Shown here in pieces: positions 491 through 6,983 of a stretch of 11,099 nucleotides of DNA (position 1 is the stretch's first letter; each line of letters begins with the position of its first letter). The position numbers and the translations under genes are program-made. The DNA is from a virus. The stretch is taken from UHGV virus genome UHGV-0313617. One strand, written 5' to 3'. The notes below the pieces were generated by a model. It was not told the DNA's origin. It saw only the letters and a list, made by a program, of their open reading frames with translations, and did no database searches.

Positions 491-2755
491 ATGAGCTTAA
501 TTAAATTCGCTGTAACAAGACCCGCTAAAAAAGGCGAAAAAGCCAGGGCGGAAAACTTCCAGATGACCACCGATGAATTTTTCGAATTTATCAAAGATGC
601 GAAAGAAATCTCCTCGGTGCATATCAACAAGACGGAAGATAAAGCCGAGTATGCGCGCCGCAAGCGTAAGGCCGACGGCATCGTGGCGTATACCAGTGAC
701 GGATTGCGTCGTAAGACCAGTGCGGTGGACCGCTCGATCCTGTTCTTCGATATCGACCGTACCGACACCCGCACCCTACGCCGCTGCCGTAAGGCGTTCA
801 TTGACGCGGGTCTGGAACATGTGTTTCACACCACAACCGGCGACCGTCACCCGCTTAAAGGTGGAACGCGTTGCGCTCGATTCCTGGTGCTCACTGACAA
901 GCCTGTACCGGCTGAAGACCTGGGCCGCGTCCAGTATGCACTATTACACCAACTGGGTCTGTCAGATGTGGACTTCGACGATTGCACGAAAGACACAAAC
1001 CGCCTGATGTACCTGCCACACCAGCAGTCTGTTATTAAGTGCCACTATGGCAAGCGCGCCCGCGTCCGTCGTCTGCTCCGCCTGGCTGACAAGCTGGGGG
1101 TGGAAAAAGAGGAAGTACGCCGCGAGCTTACCCAGGGCGACGACGCAGTGGCAGACGGTATTCTGGACTGGTGCTTCCAGGCAGGATTCGAGGAGTTATC
1201 TTCCGGGCGGGGCTATGAAGTGCCGTGCCCGAACGAACATCTGCACAGCGGCGAAGGGTCCACCGCTATTATGGTCAAGGATGGCGAGATCCGTTTCAAG
1301 TGTATGCACACCGGCAACGAGTGTTGCTCGGAACTGAACAGACACCAGCACCTGGCGCTGCGTCTTATCGGGATCCCGGACCACCTGAACGTCGAGCCAC
1401 ACAATATGTCCCGTAAGCAAATCGCCGCCATCCTTCCGGGGCTGGACGACGAGGAAGTCGAATCCTTATATGAACATATTGTTGATGCGGTTGGCGACGG
1501 CGAAGAATACGGCGTGTGCACCGATGCGGATCTGGATAACGAGCCGGTTGCGCTGTTCAGTAAGCACGACCCGATTATCGAGGGGTTGATTAACTTTAAA
1601 TCGACCTGGTACATGGCGGGTGAGTCGAATATAGGTAAGTCTTTCTACGTGCTGGGCCAGATGGGCGCGGTTGCCGCGGGTATTCCGTTTGGCGGTGCGA
1701 AGGTCGTCCAGTCTCATTGCTTCTATTTTGACGCGGAAGGTGGCGAAGCCTCCAACCAGCGTAAAGAAGCATTGCAGATTAAATATGAGCACGACCTGGA
1801 CAAGCTGCACATTATAGACCTGCAGTCACGCGGCTGGGATATCACCAGCAAATCAGGCTTGCGCGAAGTTATCAGCTTTATCAACCGCACCGCTAACGGC
1901 GAACCGGTTGGCCTGGTGGCGTTCGACTCACTCAACCAGACTGTTGCGTTGCGGTCCGCTGATGCTAAACCGTTCGACGAGAACAACGCCAGCGATATGG
2001 GTGAAGTGGTCAAAGCGCTGAAGGCCATCGCGGAAAATACAGGTGGCAGTGCGGGCGTCATCCACCACCCGGCTAAAGGTGCAAACGGCAGCAGAACGCC
2101 ACGCGGGTCCGGCGCGCTGCATGGTGCTGTCGATTCTGCGTTCTTCCTGGAACAGCCGGACGACAACCAGCCCGGACAATTGAACCTGTATCACGAAAAG
2201 TCACGTAACGGCATCAAGCAAGCGCCGCGCGGCTTCGTCCTGCTCAAGTGCAAGGTGAAGGTGGATCTCCGCAAGTCAGAAGCGTTCGAGGCGCACCAGT
2301 CCACCAGCACCGGGCCAGACTTTGGCGACGTGGTTGCCGGATGGGACGTCAAGCCGATTGCCTCCACGCCACGCGACGAGACTCTCTACCTCGTACCGGT
2401 TGCCCTGGCACCTTTCGCTATTGAACAGGCGAAGGCGGCGGGCAAGGCCGCGGTTAAGGAAGAGAACACCGCCGGACCGCGCAACGAAAAAGAGAAAGTG
2501 CTTTATGCGGCACTGGAAAAACTGATGGAAGATAACCCGGACCATACTGGATTCAGTAAATCGGCAATTGTCCGCCAGGCGGGACTCGCAAAAGGGGGCA
2601 CGTCGACGAAGGCAATCGACGATATGGTGGAGCGCGGAGTAATAGGTTTTTATACCGATCCGCACACCGGGGCCCTCTATGGGTCGTCTAATTTGGTCAT
2701 CAAATCGGATATCCCTATCACGCTTTCAGCGACCGATGACGATTTAAAAGATTAA
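491..2755 (+). CDS. Replication protein: primase-polymerase-like N-terminal domain, Cys/His zinc-ribbon, RecA-like (AAA_25/RepA-type) ATPase, C-terminal putative winged-helix domain
   Basis: 754-aa ORF. Acidic DxD motif ILFFDIDRTD (nt ~741-764). Cys/His cluster CPNEHLHSG...FKCMHTGNECC (nt ~1225-1325). Walker A GESNIGKS (nt 1619-1642) and Walker B-like LVAFDSL. C-terminal ~100 aa look like a small helical DNA-binding domain. Confidence 0.85.
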   Translation: MSLIKFAVTRPAKKGEKARAENFQMTTDEFFEFIKDAKEISSVHINKTEDKAEYARRKRKADGIVAYTSDGLRRKTSAVDRSILFFDIDRTDTRTLRRCRKAFIDAGLEHVFHTTTGDRHPLKGGTRCARFLVLTDKPVPAEDLGRVQYALLHQLGLSDVDFDDCTKDTNRLMYLPHQQSVIKCHYGKRARVRRLLRLADKLGVEKEEVRRELTQGDDAVADGILDWCFQAGFEELSSGRGYEVPCPNEHLHSGEGSTAIMVKDGEIRFKCMHTGNECCSELNRHQHLALRLIGIPDHLNVEPHNMSRKQIAAILPGLDDEEVESLYEHIVDAVGDGEEYGVCTDADLDNEPVALFSKHDPIIEGLINFKSTWYMAGESNIGKSFYVLGQMGAVAAGIPFGGAKVVQSHCFYFDAEGGEASNQRKEALQIKYEHDLDKLHIIDLQSRGWDITSKSGLREVISFINRTANGEPVGLVAFDSLNQTVALRSADAKPFDENNASDMGEVVKALKAIAENTGGSAGVIHHPAKGANGSRTPRGSGALHGAVDSAFFLEQPDDNQPGQLNLYHEKSRNGIKQAPRGFVLLKCKVKVDLRKSEAFEAHQSTSTGPDFGDVVAGWDVKPIASTPRDETLYLVPVALAPFAIEQAKAAGKAAVKEENTAGPRNEKEKVLYAALEKLMEDNPDHTGFSKSAIVRQAGLAKGGTSTKAIDDMVERGVIGFYTDPHTGALYGSSNLVIKSDIPITLSATDDDLKD

Positions 2756-2830
2756 ATTCTGCGCGCATTGGTTGCCGATATGGGAATTCCCATATCGGTA
2801 AAAGATTAAATTCTGCGCGCATTGGTTGCC
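2745..2830. repeat. Two identical 32-bp direct repeats flanking a 20-bp perfect palindrome
   Basis: TAAAAGATTAAATTCTGCGCGCATTGGTTGCC at 2745-2776 and 2799-2830. The first copy overlaps the stop codon of the replication gene. Between them lies GATATGGGAATTCCCATATC (2777-2796), a perfect palindrome. Each repeat holds the 8-bp palindrome TGCGCGCA and ends in ATTGGTTGCC. Confidence 0.9.
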
Positions 2831-2915
2831 ATTTTGAGTGTTTTTATCTGGTCGTATTGGTTGCCGTGTAGTGTAAATATAGTGAATAGTTATGCAATAA
2901 AACTGCATAAAGTAA

Positions 2916-3018
2916 GCGGGACAAAAAGCGGGACAGACCAGGGGCGGGACAAAGCGGGACAGCACCCCTGTCCCGCCCCGGATGACGCGGCCTGGCGAGG
3001 AGCGGGACAGCGGGACAG
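2916..3018. repeat. Array of seven GCGGGACA(G/A) iteron-like repeats including a perfect 9-bp-stem hairpin
   Basis: Copies at 2916, 2928, 2944, 2954, 3002 and 3010 (forward) and 2968-2976 (inverted). 2954-2976 reads GCGGGACAG-caccc-CTGTCCCGC. An AT-rich stretch (2866-2915) precedes the array. Confidence 0.85.
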
Positions 3019-3024
3019 CACCCC

Positions 3025-3073
3025 AGTCTTTCAGACTAGACGGGGGGTCTGGCACCCCCCTCGTCTGAGACTG
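3025..3073. repeat. Imperfect inverted repeat / hairpin with a GGGGGG...CCCCCC core
   Basis: CAGTCTTTCAGACTAGACGGGGGG-tctggca-CCCCCCTCGTCTGAGACTG. The arms CAGTCT/AGACTG, CAGAC/GTCTG and G6/C6 pair, with bulges. Confidence 0.7.
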
Positions 3074-3232
3074 CATAAAATCCGGGATTGCATAATACAC
3101 GGCAACAAGATGCGAATTGCGGTCGTCGATGAACTAGGCAACCAATGCGAGTTGCAGAATGGTGGGTGAAAAATGCAGTTTGCAGTTTCAGCAGATAGCG
3201 ATCAACTTTTTCATACGCGTGATTAATATTGG

Positions 3233-3261
3233 TTGCGCCCACCCCAGCACCCTGCTATATT
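3233..3261 (+). promoter_or_regulatory. Promoter candidate for the downstream small-gene cluster, overlapped by ATTGGTTGC motifs
   Basis: TTGCGC (3233-3238), 17-nt spacer, TATATT (3256-3261). ATTGGTTGC copies at 3228-3237 and 3259-3268 overlap the -35 and the -10/+1 region. Confidence 0.4.
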
Positions 3262-3289
3262 GGTTGCACACCAACATGAGGACTGAACG

Positions 3290-3595
3290 ATGAGAGCTTT
3301 AATCTGGAATTACACAATGGCGGTGGCGAAGCTGTATGAAGCGAAGCACACAGACAGCAACGCAGACGACGCGCGCCAGGTTGTCATCCTGGCCCAGCAG
3401 GGAATCATGCACGCGTTCGATGATATGTTTGCCAGCCTGGACGAACTGGAACCGCTGCGCGTGGCAATCTGCGAATATGCGATGGCTTTTGCCCGCGAGC
3501 GCCTGGCGTATCGCTTCGGGATCGGTGAGACGGCAGTGACAAACGTCGCCCGGATTAAAGCCCAGCGCGAGCTATTCGCCCAGCTTGCGAAATAA
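3290..3595 (+). CDS. Hypothetical protein
   Basis: 101-aa ORF with a GAGGA Shine-Dalgarno 7 nt upstream of the ATG. No recognisable motif. Confidence 0.6.
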   Translation: MRALIWNYTMAVAKLYEAKHTDSNADDARQVVILAQQGIMHAFDDMFASLDELEPLRVAICEYAMAFARERLAYRFGIGETAVTNVARIKAQRELFAQLAK

Positions 3596-3604
3596 GGGGG
3601 CAAA

Positions 3605-3874
3605 ATGGACCGCAGACGCGCAAAACGGCTTTCCTGGAGCATTAGCCTGCATTGCGTACGAATATGGGCTGAGAATGCGAATGAGGGCGATTCTGTGTTC
3701 TGGAGTTATCGCGACGATGTGAAGCCATTAACGCAGACCCGCTACTTGCGCCAGTTCGCAGCGAAGCACGGATTCTATGTGCGGACTTCCTTGCAACCAA
3801 TGGGTGTTCGTATTACATTACGCCGGAAGCCTGCCATTGAGCGGGCAGGAAAACACTGGAGACTGAGCAAATGA
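3605..3874 (+). CDS. Hypothetical basic protein
   Basis: 89-aa ORF with an AGGGGG Shine-Dalgarno just upstream. Arg/Lys-rich. Its stop overlaps the next start (ATGA). Confidence 0.6.
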   Translation: MDRRRAKRLSWSISLHCVRIWAENANEGDSVFWSYRDDVKPLTQTRYLRQFAAKHGFYVRTSLQPMGVRITLRRKPAIERAGKHWRLSK

Positions 3875-4035
3875 ACAAGCAACCTGAACGCTGGCGGAGT
3901 AAGGCCACGCGACTGACTTACTTCGTGACAGAAGAAGCAAACGGCAACGTGACTATTTCACACCCTAAGTGTGGTACTCGCCGCACTATCTCGCGCCTCA
4001 CATTAGTTCGTAACTACAGGAGATTGACAGAATGA
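3871..4035 (+). CDS. Hypothetical small protein (54 aa)
   Basis: Not in the supplied ORF track; read by hand as MNKQPERWRSKATRLTYFVTEEANGNVTISHPKCGTRRTISRLTLVRNYRRLTE. ATGA overlap with the upstream gene (3871-3874) and with the downstream gene (4032-4035). GGAG lies 9 nt upstream. Confidence 0.45.
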   Translation: MNKQPERWRSKATRLTYFVTEEANGNVTISHPKCGTRRTISRLTLVRNYRRLTE

Positions 4036-4571
4036 AAATGATATTCCGCAATAAGCATAATGGGAGATTCCTTACCCCGATTGAAGTGCTGCCGAACTAT
4101 GTTCGCATGTACCATGAAGCCAGCGACCGCGTATTCTGGTACAAGAAAGCCACCCTGCATGAGCATTTGCAGGTAGTGCACCATGACGTCCGCGTAGGTG
4201 ATGTGCTGCGTGATGTGCGTGACGGGTCGCTGTTAGAGGTGCTCCGCGTGAGCACGGACGGCGTTATGCTGCGCAGTGGTAAAACACAACGCGGCGTTCT
4301 GCTCACGGGCCTGGTGAATTACGCCCGCGTAGGCCGTAACTATAAACTTAAGCGCCCTGGTGTAGTGGCGAAAGAGATCACCCGTACGGAACACCCATAT
4401 ACCAAATACGACGAGCGCAAGGTGCGCGAGCATATCGACAACGCCAGGGCGCAAGCTGCCGCCATGATTCAGGCTGGCAACGATGCCAAACGATTTGGGA
4501 TTGGTGTTATTCTGGTCTACCCCGACGGCAGCATGAAGTCTACCGATCCGCGCGGGGTCATTCAGAAATGA
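4032..4571 (+). CDS. Hypothetical protein
   Basis: 179-aa ORF with an AGGAG Shine-Dalgarno at 4018-4022, 9 nt before the ATG. Protein-like composition and no Cys. No recognisable motif. Confidence 0.65.
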   Translation: MKMIFRNKHNGRFLTPIEVLPNYVRMYHEASDRVFWYKKATLHEHLQVVHHDVRVGDVLRDVRDGSLLEVLRVSTDGVMLRSGKTQRGVLLTGLVNYARVGRNYKLKRPGVVAKEITRTEHPYTKYDERKVREHIDNARAQAAAMIQAGNDAKRFGIGVILVYPDGSMKSTDPRGVIQK

Positions 4572-4708
4572 GTGCGACGATCCGGGATATGCTTCAGCAT
4601 AACCGCTTTGAGATAGGCGGTCGGGTATTTCGCAATTACTTCGTGGCGCGTGCATGGGCGCGCCATATTGGCAAGCCGGAAGGGGCAATTCGATGCTACA
4701 CGATTTGA
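4568..4708 (+). CDS. Hypothetical small protein (46 aa)
   Basis: Read by hand: MSATIRDMLQHNRFEIGGRVFRNYFVARAWARHIGKPEGAIRCYTI. Its ATG overlaps the stop of the upstream gene (ATGA at 4568-4571). No strong Shine-Dalgarno, so it would depend on translational coupling. Confidence 0.35.
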   Translation: MSATIRDMLQHNRFEIGGRVFRNYFVARAWARHIGKPEGAIRCYTI

Positions 4709-4980
4709 TATATTGGTTTGGATTGGGGTGTGCGACACTCTTTGCTATGGTGCTGGCGCTGTTGGTGTGGGTCTTCCTGATTTGGCCCGCTGTGGAAGCT
4801 GCCAGTATTACCCGCATGACGTTCCAGATATACAAGCGCCGTGGAATCACGGAGCACCCGACCAGGTTGCGCATGTGGTGGCTGTGGTATCGCGATATGA
4901 TAGGGGGCCGGATGTTCGAGGCCGTCCGATCGGAAGGGTGGGAGTGGAAAGGCGTCGGCAAGTGGTCCATTTTCGATTAA
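4693..4980 (+). CDS. Hypothetical single-pass membrane protein with a Trp/Arg-rich C-terminal region
   Basis: AAGGGG Shine-Dalgarno at 4681-4686, 6 nt before the ATG at 4693. One hydrophobic helix (IYWFGLGCATLFAMVLALLVWVFLIW). The track's longer version starts at 4654 in the same frame but has no RBS. Confidence 0.55.
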   Translation: MLHDLIYWFGLGCATLFAMVLALLVWVFLIWPAVEAASITRMTFQIYKRRGITEHPTRLRMWWLWYRDMIGGRMFEAVRSEGWEWKGVGKWSIFD

Positions 4981-4997
4981 TTATGCAAGCGTGATAT

Positions 4998-5032
4998 AGT
5001 CCCAGTGAGATAAAACTTACTGGGACTTTTTT
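4998..5032 (+). terminator. Rho-independent terminator candidate directly abutting the holin start codon
   Basis: Stem AGTCCCAGT (4998-5006) pairs with ACTGGGACT (5017-5025), followed by TTTTTT (5026-5032). The next base is the ATG at 5033. Confidence 0.6.
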
Positions 5033-5323
5033 ATGGATAAGCTAAACGAGTGGTTATTCGCCCTTGCGTGTCTTGCTGGTGGCTTCGTAGGCGCACGCAT
5101 TCATGGCGAGGCAACGAAAGGGCCGTTGAACTTCGTTTTATATATCGTGGTTGGCTTCCTGTGTGCCATATTTGGTGCTCCAGCTATTGCCGAGTGGTCT
5201 GGTTTGTCTGGCGAGCGCACTGTCGCCGGTTTGGGCTTCGTAACTGCCATCTTCTGGATGCCAATAGCTGACCGGATCCGGGAGACAATTGCGACGCTAC
5301 ACCTTCCGGGGGGCGCGAAATGA
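5033..5323 (+). CDS. Putative holin (three predicted transmembrane segments, charged C-terminus)
   Basis: 96 aa. Hydrophobic segments WLFALACLAGGFVGA, LNFVLYIVVGFLCAIFGAPAIA and VAGLGFVTAIFWMPIA. Sits immediately upstream of the endolysin. Stop overlaps the next start (ATGA). Confidence 0.7.
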   Translation: MDKLNEWLFALACLAGGFVGARIHGEATKGPLNFVLYIVVGFLCAIFGAPAIAEWSGLSGERTVAGLGFVTAIFWMPIADRIRETIATLHLPGGAK

Positions 5324-5565
5324 TTATTACCGTCCTGTTGTTTGTTATCATAGGGGCTTCGTCCCTGTTTAACGTGTATGCGCCGTCCGTCCAGGACGGC
5401 ATCTTAGGCCGGGTGTTGTATCTGTTAACGGCAATGGTCTGTATTATCGGATTGTTGCAAACAGGAGACGTATCAGATACCACCTGGACCGCGTTAATCT
5501 GGCTGTTTGCATTGCGCACCCTGCGTAATGCTGTTTTGAATGGGGTAAAACATGCGATTCAGTGA
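5320..5565 (+). CDS. Second holin-like small membrane protein (holin, antiholin or partner)
   Basis: 81 aa with 2-3 hydrophobic segments (IITVLLFVIIGASSLF, ILGRVLYLLTAMVCIIGLL, WTALIWLFAL) and a basic C-terminus. Overlaps both neighbours. Confidence 0.65.
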   Translation: MIITVLLFVIIGASSLFNVYAPSVQDGILGRVLYLLTAMVCIIGLLQTGDVSDTTWTALIWLFALRTLRNAVLNGVKHAIQ

Positions 5566-6043
5566 CAACGGTCTACGATTTACGGCAGCCTGGGAGGCAT
5601 TCAGCCCAGTGCCGTATTTCGCGACCAAGAAAGAGCAGGCCCGCGGCCTGTACACCTGGGGCTATGGTCACACCGGCACTAATCCGCCACGAAGCATTAC
5701 CCGTGCGGAAGCGCTGGAACTGCTCAAGCGAGATGTGGCGTATGCCGAGGACTGGGTGAACAAATACGCACATCCGAGCATTAACCAGGCGCAATTCGAC
5801 GCGCTGGTGGATCTGGTAATCAACGCCGGTCCTGGTCCGATCGTGCCGGATGACGTCGCGAACGATTTCGATGATGCGGTGCGACTGGGCGACTGGGCGA
5901 AGGTCCGTGCTATTCTGCCGCAGTTCCGCAAGCAAGGCGGATCGGTGCTCTTAGGTCTGGTCCGTCGCGCAATCGGCAGGCAAGCACTATTCGAGGGTAA
6001 GCAGTGGGACGTTGCCGAGAAAATCGGGCGTAACGCAGCATAA
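5552..6043 (+). CDS. Endolysin, phage lysozyme (glycoside hydrolase family 24-like)
   Basis: 163 aa. Motifs typical of T4/P22-type lysozymes as I recall them: N-terminal Glu (WEAF), GYGHTG, NQAQFDALVDLVINAG, and a C-terminal RRAIGRQALF. Positioned after the holin genes. Confidence 0.8.
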   Translation: MRFSDNGLRFTAAWEAFSPVPYFATKKEQARGLYTWGYGHTGTNPPRSITRAEALELLKRDVAYAEDWVNKYAHPSINQAQFDALVDLVINAGPGPIVPDDVANDFDDAVRLGDWAKVRAILPQFRKQGGSVLLGLVRRAIGRQALFEGKQWDVAEKIGRNAA

Positions 6044-6059
6044 TACGAGGTAACACAGT

Positions 6060-6473
6060 ATGTTAAAAAGCATTCTTGATCATAACGCCGACGCACTTGC
6101 TGCACTGGCTAAAACCGAAGACCCTGGCGCACGCGCTATCATCGCGGACACTATCAGCCATGCAGGCGTCTTTGACGCTAAGCTGCCGAGTGTTCCGGAA
6201 AGAAAGCCCGTGAAAAGTGCTACCGTGACTATCACACCGAATTCAGTCGCAGTTGACGGAACGGCTACTGCTTCTGTTGACGTCTTGCCCGCTGACGCGA
6301 CTAACAAGACAGGGGTCTGGGTGTCTACGAACCCTGCCGGTGCAGAAATCGATGCAAAAACTGGCAAAATCACAGCAAAATCGGCAGGTGGCGTTTATAT
6401 GTTTTGGGTGGCTGCCGACGGTAGTGGGGTGCTGGGGTCTGCGACCATCAACGTAACGGAAAAAGTAGAATAA
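6060..6473 (+). CDS. Big_2 (bacterial Ig-like) domain protein of unknown role
   Basis: 137 aa with a GAGG Shine-Dalgarno 9 nt upstream. The C-terminal ~85 aa (ATVTITPNSVAVDGTATASVDVLPADATNKTGVWVSTNPAGAEIDAKTGKITAKSAGGVYMFWVAADGSGVLGSATINVT) match the Big_2 beta-sandwich pattern. No signal peptide or transmembrane segment. Confidence 0.7.
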   Translation: MLKSILDHNADALAALAKTEDPGARAIIADTISHAGVFDAKLPSVPERKPVKSATVTITPNSVAVDGTATASVDVLPADATNKTGVWVSTNPAGAEIDAKTGKITAKSAGGVYMFWVAADGSGVLGSATINVTEKVE

Positions 6474-6479
6474 AACACA

Positions 6480-6503
6480 AGCCCGGAATCAACCGGGCTT
6501 TTT
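6480..6503 (+). terminator. Rho-independent terminator after the lysis cassette
   Basis: Stem AGCCCGG (6480-6486), loop AATCAA, stem CCGGGCT (6493-6499), then a T-run to 6503. Confidence 0.75.
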
Positions 6504-6508
6504 ATTGC

Positions 6509-6537
6509 TTGACTCGCAACCAACATAGGCCCATACT
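6509..6537 (+). promoter_or_regulatory. Weak promoter candidate carrying two GCAACCAA motifs
   Basis: TTGACT (6509-6514), 17-nt spacer, CATACT (6532-6537, poor -10). GCAACCAA at 6516-6523 and 6538-6545. A strong Shine-Dalgarno (GAGGAGGAGGA, 6548-6558) follows. Confidence 0.35.
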
Positions 6538-6568: not shown

Positions 6569-6655
6569 ATGGCGCGTAACGATATTTATGTAATAGCAAT
6601 ATGGTCCGCAGCGGCCTTTATTGGAATGGCAATTTGTGAGGTGATGAATGGCTGA
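6569..6655 (+). CDS. Candidate 28-aa hydrophobic micro-protein
   Basis: Read by hand: MARNDIYVIAIWSAAAFIGMAICEVMNG. GAGGAGGAGGA lies 10 nt upstream. The stop TGA sits inside the sequence AATGGCTGA that contains the next ATG. Confidence 0.4.
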   Translation: MARNDIYVIAIWSAAAFIGMAICEVMNG

Positions 6656-6943: not shown

Positions 6944-6969
6944 AGCCCGCCGATTTGGTGGGCTTTTTT
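6944..6969 (+). terminator. Rho-independent terminator
   Basis: Stem AGCCCGCC (6944-6951) pairs with GGTGGGCT (6957-6964), with one G-U pair. Loop GATTT. T-run 6964-6969. Confidence 0.65.
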
Positions 6970-6983
6970 GTGCCTGTTATAAT
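6955..6983 (+). promoter_or_regulatory. Extended -10 promoter candidate for the packaging operon
   Basis: TGtTATAAT at 6975-6983 (perfect TATAAT at 6978-6983 with an upstream TG). A weak -35 TTGGTG (6955-6960) lies 17 nt upstream, inside the terminator's 3' arm. Confidence 0.5.

Follow-up and report, generated by a model that had tools for sequence, protein, structure and literature searches.

Lysis timing sets phage fitness and burst size and, to our knowledge, the silencing of holins during early transcription in small virulent siphoviruses is largely unstudied. In phage lambda, the terminator tR' stands directly before the lysis cassette. T4 AsiA and gp39 of the Thermus phage P23-45 disable sigma region 4, and middle and late promoter classes associated with them are of an extended -10, -35-less type. 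A further arrangement is known from the T4 genes e, soc, 49 and I-TevI, whose long early transcripts form an inhibitory helix and whose late promoters are located in the DNA encoding the 5' strand of that helix (PMC3014915); the source for the initiation hairpin of gene e (lysozyme) is McPheeters et al., 1986 (PMC311593), reviewed in PMC3014915. No description of a combined terminator, translational lock and promoter was found in the searchable literature for the phages treated below, in which the site is annotated only as a terminator.

The window, the whole stretch of 11,099 nt from virus genome UHGV-0313617 that was analysed, belongs to Dhillonvirus (HK578-like E. coli siphoviruses), to which it is 85–96% identical. 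Its features up to the end of the lysis cassette are the following:

151–480, + strand: gene for an HTH protein, the first gene of the window
491–2755, + strand: primase-helicase gene
after the primase-helicase gene: repeat-rich noncoding stretch of 535 nt
3233–3261, + strand: candidate promoter of the upstream operon, TTGCGC-17-TGcTATATT, with an equivalent site at HK578 38719
3290–4980, + strand: tightly packed operon of small genes, co-directional with the holin gene
4693–4980, + strand: last gene of the upstream operon, encoding a 95-aa membrane protein of PHROG 2531, function unknown
5033–5323, + strand: first holin gene, 96 aa, PHROG 2359
5320–5565, + strand: second holin-like gene, PHROG 2508
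5552–6043, + strand: endolysin gene, Pfam Phage_lysozyme
6060–6473, + strand: gene for an Ig-like (Big_2) protein, the final gene of the cassette
6479–6504, strand ".": bidirectional terminator-like hairpin closing the lysis cassette

The Ig-domain gene is followed, in order, by a terminator, small ORFs, a second terminator and the genes for the terminase small and large subunits and the portal; no tRNA genes were found in the window. A scan of the window revealed no terminator-like site on the + strand between the 3233–3261 promoter and position 4998. This predicted promoter is likely the source of the transcripts that enter the hairpin described below, and the packed operon at 3290–4980, together with the absence of a terminator-like site, suggests that earlier co-directional transcription would enter the holin gene.

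The junction between the upstream operon and the first holin gene is made up of these overlapping parts:

4992–5000, + strand: extended -10 promoter-like element TGaTATAGT, ending in the 3 nt that open the 5' arm
4998–5009, + strand: 5' arm of the hairpin, AGTCCCAGTGAG, the anti-Shine-Dalgarno (anti-SD) strand
5007–5008, + strand: predicted transcription start, G/A, 7–8 nt past the -10 and derived from -10 geometry
5010–5015, + strand: loop, ATAAAA, the sole part of the element that varies within the genus
5016–5027, + strand: 3' arm, CTTACTGGGACT, holding the SD-like GGGA at 5022–5025
5027–5032, + strand: run of six T residues, serving as terminator U-tract and as SD-to-AUG spacer

The stem (4998–5009/5016–5027) contains 12 bp, six of them G-C and one a G5007.U5018 pair, around a 6-nt loop, and the RNA 3' of the stem reads UUUUUAUGG, a U-rich tract that begins immediately after it. 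An earlier reading made from the letters of this DNA (the sequence-only reading) had described a hairpin whose U-tract runs into the holin start codon, and this description holds, with T residues at 5027–5032 and the ATG at 5033. The 40-nt segment folds at -19.8 kcal/mol (z = -6.76), and none of 200 dinucleotide shuffles folded as well. A terminator scan returned the hairpin at 4998–5027 as the best terminator-like site in the window; it has the sequence features of intrinsic terminators (a GC-rich stem of about 5–14 bp, a loop of 3–8 nt and a U-tract directly 3'), and the equivalent site in phage PTXU06 is annotated as an ARNold terminator. Together, hairpin and U-tract would act as an intrinsic terminator for upstream transcripts. 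An Rfam scan of the whole window gave nothing at threshold, the only match being to NsiR1 at 28.1 bits against a cutoff of 39. An RNase III site was rejected because the stem is only 12 bp long, and a bidirectional terminator at 4998–5027 because the minus strand carries no U-tract.

The ATG at 5033 is the true holin start: there is no other in-frame start, the MDKL N-terminus is conserved in Kagunavirus homologues, and MDK(L/F) is common to holin homologues at 46–50% identity. No second in-frame start one or two codons away, of the lambda dual-start type, was found near this single ATG (N-terminus MDKLNEW). Contrary to the sequence-only reading, there is space for a Shine-Dalgarno sequence before the start codon: GGGA at 5022–5025 is present within the 3' arm at a spacing of 7 nt from the ATG and can pair with the 16S 3' end (G.U, G-C, G-C, A-U). 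GGGA is a weak SD; relatives carry GGGG, GGGGA, GGAG or GGAGGA at the same place. On folding, the GGGA is fully paired in read-through RNA, its probability of being unpaired, P(unpaired), being 0.000 in RNA 4900–5080. Among 60 HK578 initiation regions, that of the holin ranks first for occlusion in silico (0.095 versus a median of 0.476), in agreement with the earlier proposal that the hairpin is able to occlude holin initiation. RNAs starting at 5004–5010 leave the SD about 0.40 unpaired, with weak residual structure of about -10 kcal/mol. Translational coupling of the holin to the upstream gene was rejected, as the upstream stop codon (4978–4980) is too far away, 18 nt 5' of the hairpin and 52 nt 5' of the holin ATG.

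TATAGT within the 4992–5000 element matches the -10 at 5/6 positions and is of the extended type, with no recognisable -35 (TTCGAT, 2/6), and TGaTATAGT is invariant in Dhillonvirus. RNA from the predicted start at 5007–5008 would miss 9–10 of the 12 nt of the 5' arm. Since the start would lie about 7 nt past the -10, the resulting RNA would be without the hairpin, and the conserved promoter-like element in the 5' arm probably lets lysis-gene transcripts begin in this way. The sequence-only reading had overlooked this conserved extended -10, which would offer a simpler route to expression, with transcription starting inside the hairpin and the same start codon used. A literature search for transcription start or RNA-seq mapping in Dhillonvirus, Kagunavirus and Jerseyvirus returned only a time course of Kagunavirus at gene level, which covers neither the holin nor promoters.

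The best model, to which we assign a probability of roughly 0.55, is that the element combines a terminator and a translational lock on upstream transcripts, both of which are bypassed by an embedded promoter. Polymerase arriving from the upstream operon would terminate at the hairpin and U-tract, within the T run and start codon. Read-through RNA would carry the hairpin, and the first holin would not be translated from it because the 3' arm holds the holin SD, GGGA. The -35-independent extended -10 promoter TGaTATAGT (4992–5000) would start transcription near 5007–5008, inside the 5' arm, and the lysis mRNA would therefore be neither terminated nor locked; this mRNA of the cassette's own would have no hairpin and would expose the SD with its U-rich spacer. 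Transcription of the cassette would be closed by the bidirectional terminator at 6479–6504. The element is thus probably a compact junction between the upstream operon, itself probably early or middle, and the lysis cassette.

By analogy, the holin element would on balance be a holin version of the T4 gene e mechanism. In T4 the lysis gene lies downstream of earlier co-directional transcription and its SD is held in a helix in long transcripts; here, co-directional transcription is predicted to arrive from the upstream operon, and such pairing is found in silico for the GGGA. The promoter within the 5' strand may have a counterpart in the putative promoter, whose motif and geometry recur from lineage to lineage. 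Late promoters of T4 are gp55-dependent (TATAAATA), whereas a host sigma-70-type extended -10 motif is found here. The T4 hairpin is not a terminator, whereas the hairpin here, as in the Jersey and KLB22 lineages, has a U-tract abutting the start codon. The gene controlled is a holin rather than an endolysin gene, and it belongs to small siphoviruses that are unrelated to T4 and in which the arrangement is predicted from sequence. If the model is true, unrelated phages with host-type promoters would have either evolved or retained the logic of T4 gene e.

The resemblance to lambda pR'-tR' with Q and the sdi stem-loop consists in a terminator upstream of the lysis cassette and a stem-loop over a G-rich SD that tunes holin initiation. 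In contrast to lambda, no Q-like gene or dual-start motif was seen here, MDKL... being the only start of the holin. In lambda the terminator is located about 200 nt from S and does not contain the S SD, and the stem-loop does not block initiation but divides it between two starts. With ordinary Rho-independent terminators at operon junctions the element shares a GC-rich stem, a short loop, a U-tract and a position just after a stop codon. It differs from these, including those at 6479–6537 and 6944–6983 of the window, in that the -10 precedes and overlaps the stem, an inverted order, and in that the 3' arm and the U-tract also provide the next gene with its SD and spacer. The arrangement is neat and conserved across several genera but unsurprising to specialists. 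If the model is correct, a 40-nt element would unite terminator, translational lock and promoter, a very compact insulator with potential uses in synthetic operons and phage engineering, and for annotators a "terminator" right before a lysis cassette need not mean control by read-through or antitermination.

Conservation within the genus was evaluated in 30 related Dhillonvirus copies, representing 14 distinct sequences when that of the window is counted. Hardly any change was seen in the 52 nt between the two genes: -10-like motif, stem, T run and ATG are constant, and variation is confined to a few intergenic sites in the upstream flank and two loop positions. Such invariance shows strong constraint and leaves no covariation inside Dhillonvirus. 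In the divergent LM40P1 group (holin identity 70%), one more C-G pair is present and GGGG replaces GGGA, again with T6 abutting an ATG.

Holins of one family, at 25–46% identity, are found in Dhillonvirus, Kagunavirus, Jerseyvirus, Scapp/Smarc4, KLB22/KW1E, Tsm2/Otaku, phiEap-2, MED16 and RF1. The comparison covers eight sampled groups from six or seven sequence-distinct lineages that share ancestry, with hairpins picked by eye. The elements of six lineages other than Dhillonvirus, from hexamer to start codon, are:

Kagunavirus: cgTG[g/c]TATCCTCCAG - loop - CTGGAGGAT tcatc TTG
Jersey/Ent3: TG[c/t]TAATCTCCGAA - loop - TTTCGGAGATT TTTTATT GTG
Scapp/Smarc4: gcTAATCT GGCCCC - loop - GGGGCT tcaa TTG
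KLB22/KW1E: TACTAT TCCCCGGA - loop - TTCGGGGA T7-8 ATG
Tsm2/Otaku: TATACT GCCTCGG - loop - CTGAGGC ttcac ATG
phiEap-2: TATACT GCCCCTG - loop - CAGGGGT taatccgttt ATG

The stems of these six lineages are wholly different in sequence and cannot be aligned position by position. Each nevertheless carries an SD-like purine run in its 3' arm, 6–11 nt from the start codon, and the P(unpaired) of this run is ≤0.008 in a 140-nt RNA that includes the hairpin. In short RNAs it rises to 0.17–0.59, except in Jersey, where the SD stays covered by weaker alternative pairing with the coding region (0.019); in MED16 the SD is exceptional in lying in the loop and not the stem. Kagunavirus, Scapp-like phages, Tsm2 and phiEap-2 have kept the hairpin and have no U-tract. 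Because a U-tract after the stem is limited to Dhillonvirus, Jersey and KLB22, the feature common to the lineages is predicted SD sequestration and not termination. Erwinia phage RF1 is a natural control for the hairpin: its holin gene opens a divergent unit with no co-directional genes upstream, the hairpin is absent, and an AAGG SD is exposed. Two homologous holins in different contexts were set aside, that of Salmonella phage PCSE1, whose start overlaps the endolysin stop, and that of Pectobacterium phage Arno18, in which the intergenic element is absent.

The position of the promoter-like hexamer is likewise conserved. In every sampled lineage the final base of the 5' arm is preceded at 4–11 nt by the end of a TAnnnT hexamer, which long arms overlap and short arms directly follow. 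Transcription starting 7 nt past the final T of the hexamer would therefore always begin at or near the end of the 5' arm, leaving 0–5 nt of that arm in the RNA of any of these lineages. Besides Dhillonvirus, the hexamer is preceded by TG in Kagunavirus (TGnTATCCT), Jersey (TGnTAATCT) and MED16 (TGcTATCGT), and occurs without TG in the remaining lineages (TATACT, TACTAT, TAATCT), where it matches TATAAT at just 3–4 of 6 positions. From locus-wide frequencies, a TAnnnT would fall by chance within the observed range of 8 positions with a probability of 5–15% per lineage, and the product for the eight groups, about 1e-9, overstates the significance because intergenic DNA is A/T-richer than the locus average, ancestry is shared, and Tsm2/Otaku and phiEap-2 have the same hexamer and may not be independent. 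Among 34 distinct Kagunavirus sequences, TG and TAT..T are invariant while the 'n' of TGn is among the most variable positions, which is the pattern expected of a TGn motif. The Kagunavirus stem is fixed in these 34 sequences save for one A-to-G change that gives a G.U pair, and in two variants (L058 and L071) it is lengthened by changes on opposite arms. A small conserved palindrome, TTAGGATAATTCCTA, was also observed in Kagunavirus (L020–L022, L039–L079) about 45–60 nt upstream of the holin start, just 5' of TGnTATCCT and in the position of a -35 or operator.

Motifs of the same class recur elsewhere in these genomes. TGnTATnnT occurs 10 times in the window against 3.6 expected, nine times on the + strand, and the three intergenic copies precede the 3290 operon, the holin gene and terS. 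The complete HK578 genome is 6.5% noncoding, yet 4 of its 6 TGnTATAnT and 13 of its 63 TGnTAnnnT sequences are located in noncoding DNA. Nine HK578 matches lie 28–73 nt upstream of + strand gene starts, ahead of scaffold, tail genes, tape measure, minor tail, tail fibre, small-gene operon, holin, exonuclease and terminase, and none of the nine has a good -35. This resembles the AsiA and gp39 phages in that + strand modules of Dhillonvirus are preceded by TGnTAnnnT with poor -35 hexamers; it differs in that no AsiA-like or gp39-like factor was identified here, and the link is a lead only. At HK578 14144–14183, between the tape-measure stop codon and the minor-tail gene gp18, the architecture of the holin element is repeated, with TGaTAAAAT, a hairpin (GGCCCTCAC/GTGGGGGCT) whose 3' arm contains a G-run, T5 and ATG. 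This copy is conserved across Dhillonviruses (also L096–L106), apart from a variable loop and a single wobble change in the stem. Since the upstream stop codon is just 7 nt 5' of its 5' arm, unfolding by ribosomes, i.e. translational coupling, is possible at gp18, and conservation of the A-rich hexamer there could simply reflect pairing with the U-tract.

A simpler account of the holin junction is a plain leaky terminator or attenuator that lacks an internal promoter: part of the transcription from upstream would read through, the hairpin would constitutively damp translation of the first holin and keep its synthesis low, and the hexamers would be incidental products of A/T-rich flanks. Canonical terminator anatomy, the annotation of the PTXU06 site, the weak -35 of the putative promoter and the alternative explanation of the gp18 hexamer by U-tract pairing all fit this account, as does the fact that holins are required in small amounts, lambda S too being tuned by a stem-loop over its SD. 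It leaves unexplained the constant distance from TAnnnT to the arm end in six or seven lineages with wholly different stems, the fixed TG and TAT..T beside a varying 'n', and the lineages that, without a U-tract, lock a strong SD (GGAGGA) in a perfect helix of 9–13 bp. An essential cassette would moreover depend on leakage past -19.8 kcal/mol and then on an SD that is 100% paired. We regard leakiness alone as a serious but rather unlikely explanation. More speculative, and clearly improbable as a whole, is an extension of the embedded-promoter model in which the module times lysis independently of factors, is common to several siphovirus genera and is reused at late genes such as gp18. Early polymerases would traverse, and so occlude, the embedded -35-less promoter before terminating, because the terminator lies downstream of it, and read-through RNA would be locked; the holin clock would start once early transcription subsides or, alternatively, once the disabling of sigma region 4 hands transcription over to extended -10 promoters.

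The sequence-only reading had instead offered two routes of lysis control. In one, the lysis genes are on only when a Q-like or N-like phage antiterminator permits read-through, which would give late timing. A terminator directly before the cassette, as at lambda tR', and an upstream operon that is co-directional and has no other terminator are in its favour. This route is doubtful, and we consider it quite unlikely, because no antiterminator is annotated in complete HK578 (nor was one seen among the 16 window proteins scanned) and because antiterminated RNA would still contain the hairpin, with the holin SD paired. The lack of a U-tract in Kagunavirus, Scapp-like phages, Tsm2 and phiEap-2 further argues that termination is not the conserved feature. 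The other route was leaderless or structure-gated translation of the holin; considered here is leaderless or SD-independent initiation, either on an mRNA that starts at or just before the AUG or through ribosome recruitment by the U-tract via protein S1. In favour of it, the SD is weak, six U residues stand immediately before the AUG, and S1 can bind U-rich leaders. Leaderless translation is unlikely: none of the hexamers that end 5–9 nt before 5033, at 5024–5028 (ACTGGG, CTGGGA, TGGGAC, GGGACT and GGACTT), fits TAnnnT, so that no promoter is placed to start at 5033; in addition, an SD-like G-run at 6–11 nt is conserved in all lineages and is strong in Kagunavirus (GGAGGA). SD-independent initiation in either form is, in our estimate, extremely improbable. 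Some probability is also kept for explanations outside these readings. Taken together, built-in control of the lysis genes, which the sequence-only reading had proposed, is reasonable because the site has all the sequence features of a terminator and its SD is occluded in hairpin-containing RNA, although neither the antiterminated-only nor the leaderless route to it is favoured.

Several further observations were made in the window and in HK578. The 535-nt noncoding stretch (window 2745–3290) contains five direct and one inverted copy of ATTGGTTGC, two of which flank the -35 and -10 in the promoter predicted for the 3290 operon, an arrangement that looks like an operator. The same stretch has five direct GCGGGACA iterons plus inverted copies and is origin-like, and a perfect 32-nt direct repeat (2745–2776/2799–2830) flanks a 15-nt palindrome. 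The 109-aa product of 151–480 has an HTH scoring above the Pfam cutoffs for Sigma70_r4_2 and HTH_23, and its HK578 equivalent is annotated 'transposase'; it is a candidate phage transcription regulator and possibly binds the ATTGGTTGC box.

Downstream of the holin element, terminators and promoters occur in the opposite order, terminator then promoter, at 6944–6983 and 6479–6537. Ahead of terS, a consensus extended -10 promoter, TGtTATAAT (6975–6983), has its -35, TTGGTG, in the 3' arm of the terminator at 6944–6969, and the bidirectional terminator at 6479–6500 is followed by TTGACT-17-CATACT (predicted promoter 6509–6537). The sequence after a -10 at the terminator-promoter junction, TATAaTCCC..T.AGAT, resembles TATAgTCCC..T.AGAT of the holin element. 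In HK578 an inverted repeat at 42240–42275, GGACCGTG-N10-CACGGTCC, surrounds the -10, TGaTATATT, in the promoter predicted for gp59, an exonuclease gene that is absent from the window; the repeat looks like an operator or a hairpin around the promoter. The second holin gene contains, 20 nt before the endolysin ATG at 5552, a hairpin of 10 bp with TGTTTTG after it (5509–5531). This hairpin may be an internal attenuator, may influence initiation at the endolysin gene, or may have arisen by chance. Just after the 6509–6537 promoter, an unlisted 28-codon ORF at 6569–6655, MARNDIYVIAIWSAAAFIGMAICEVMNG, is located behind a very strong SD, GGAGGAGGAG, and may encode a small membrane peptide.
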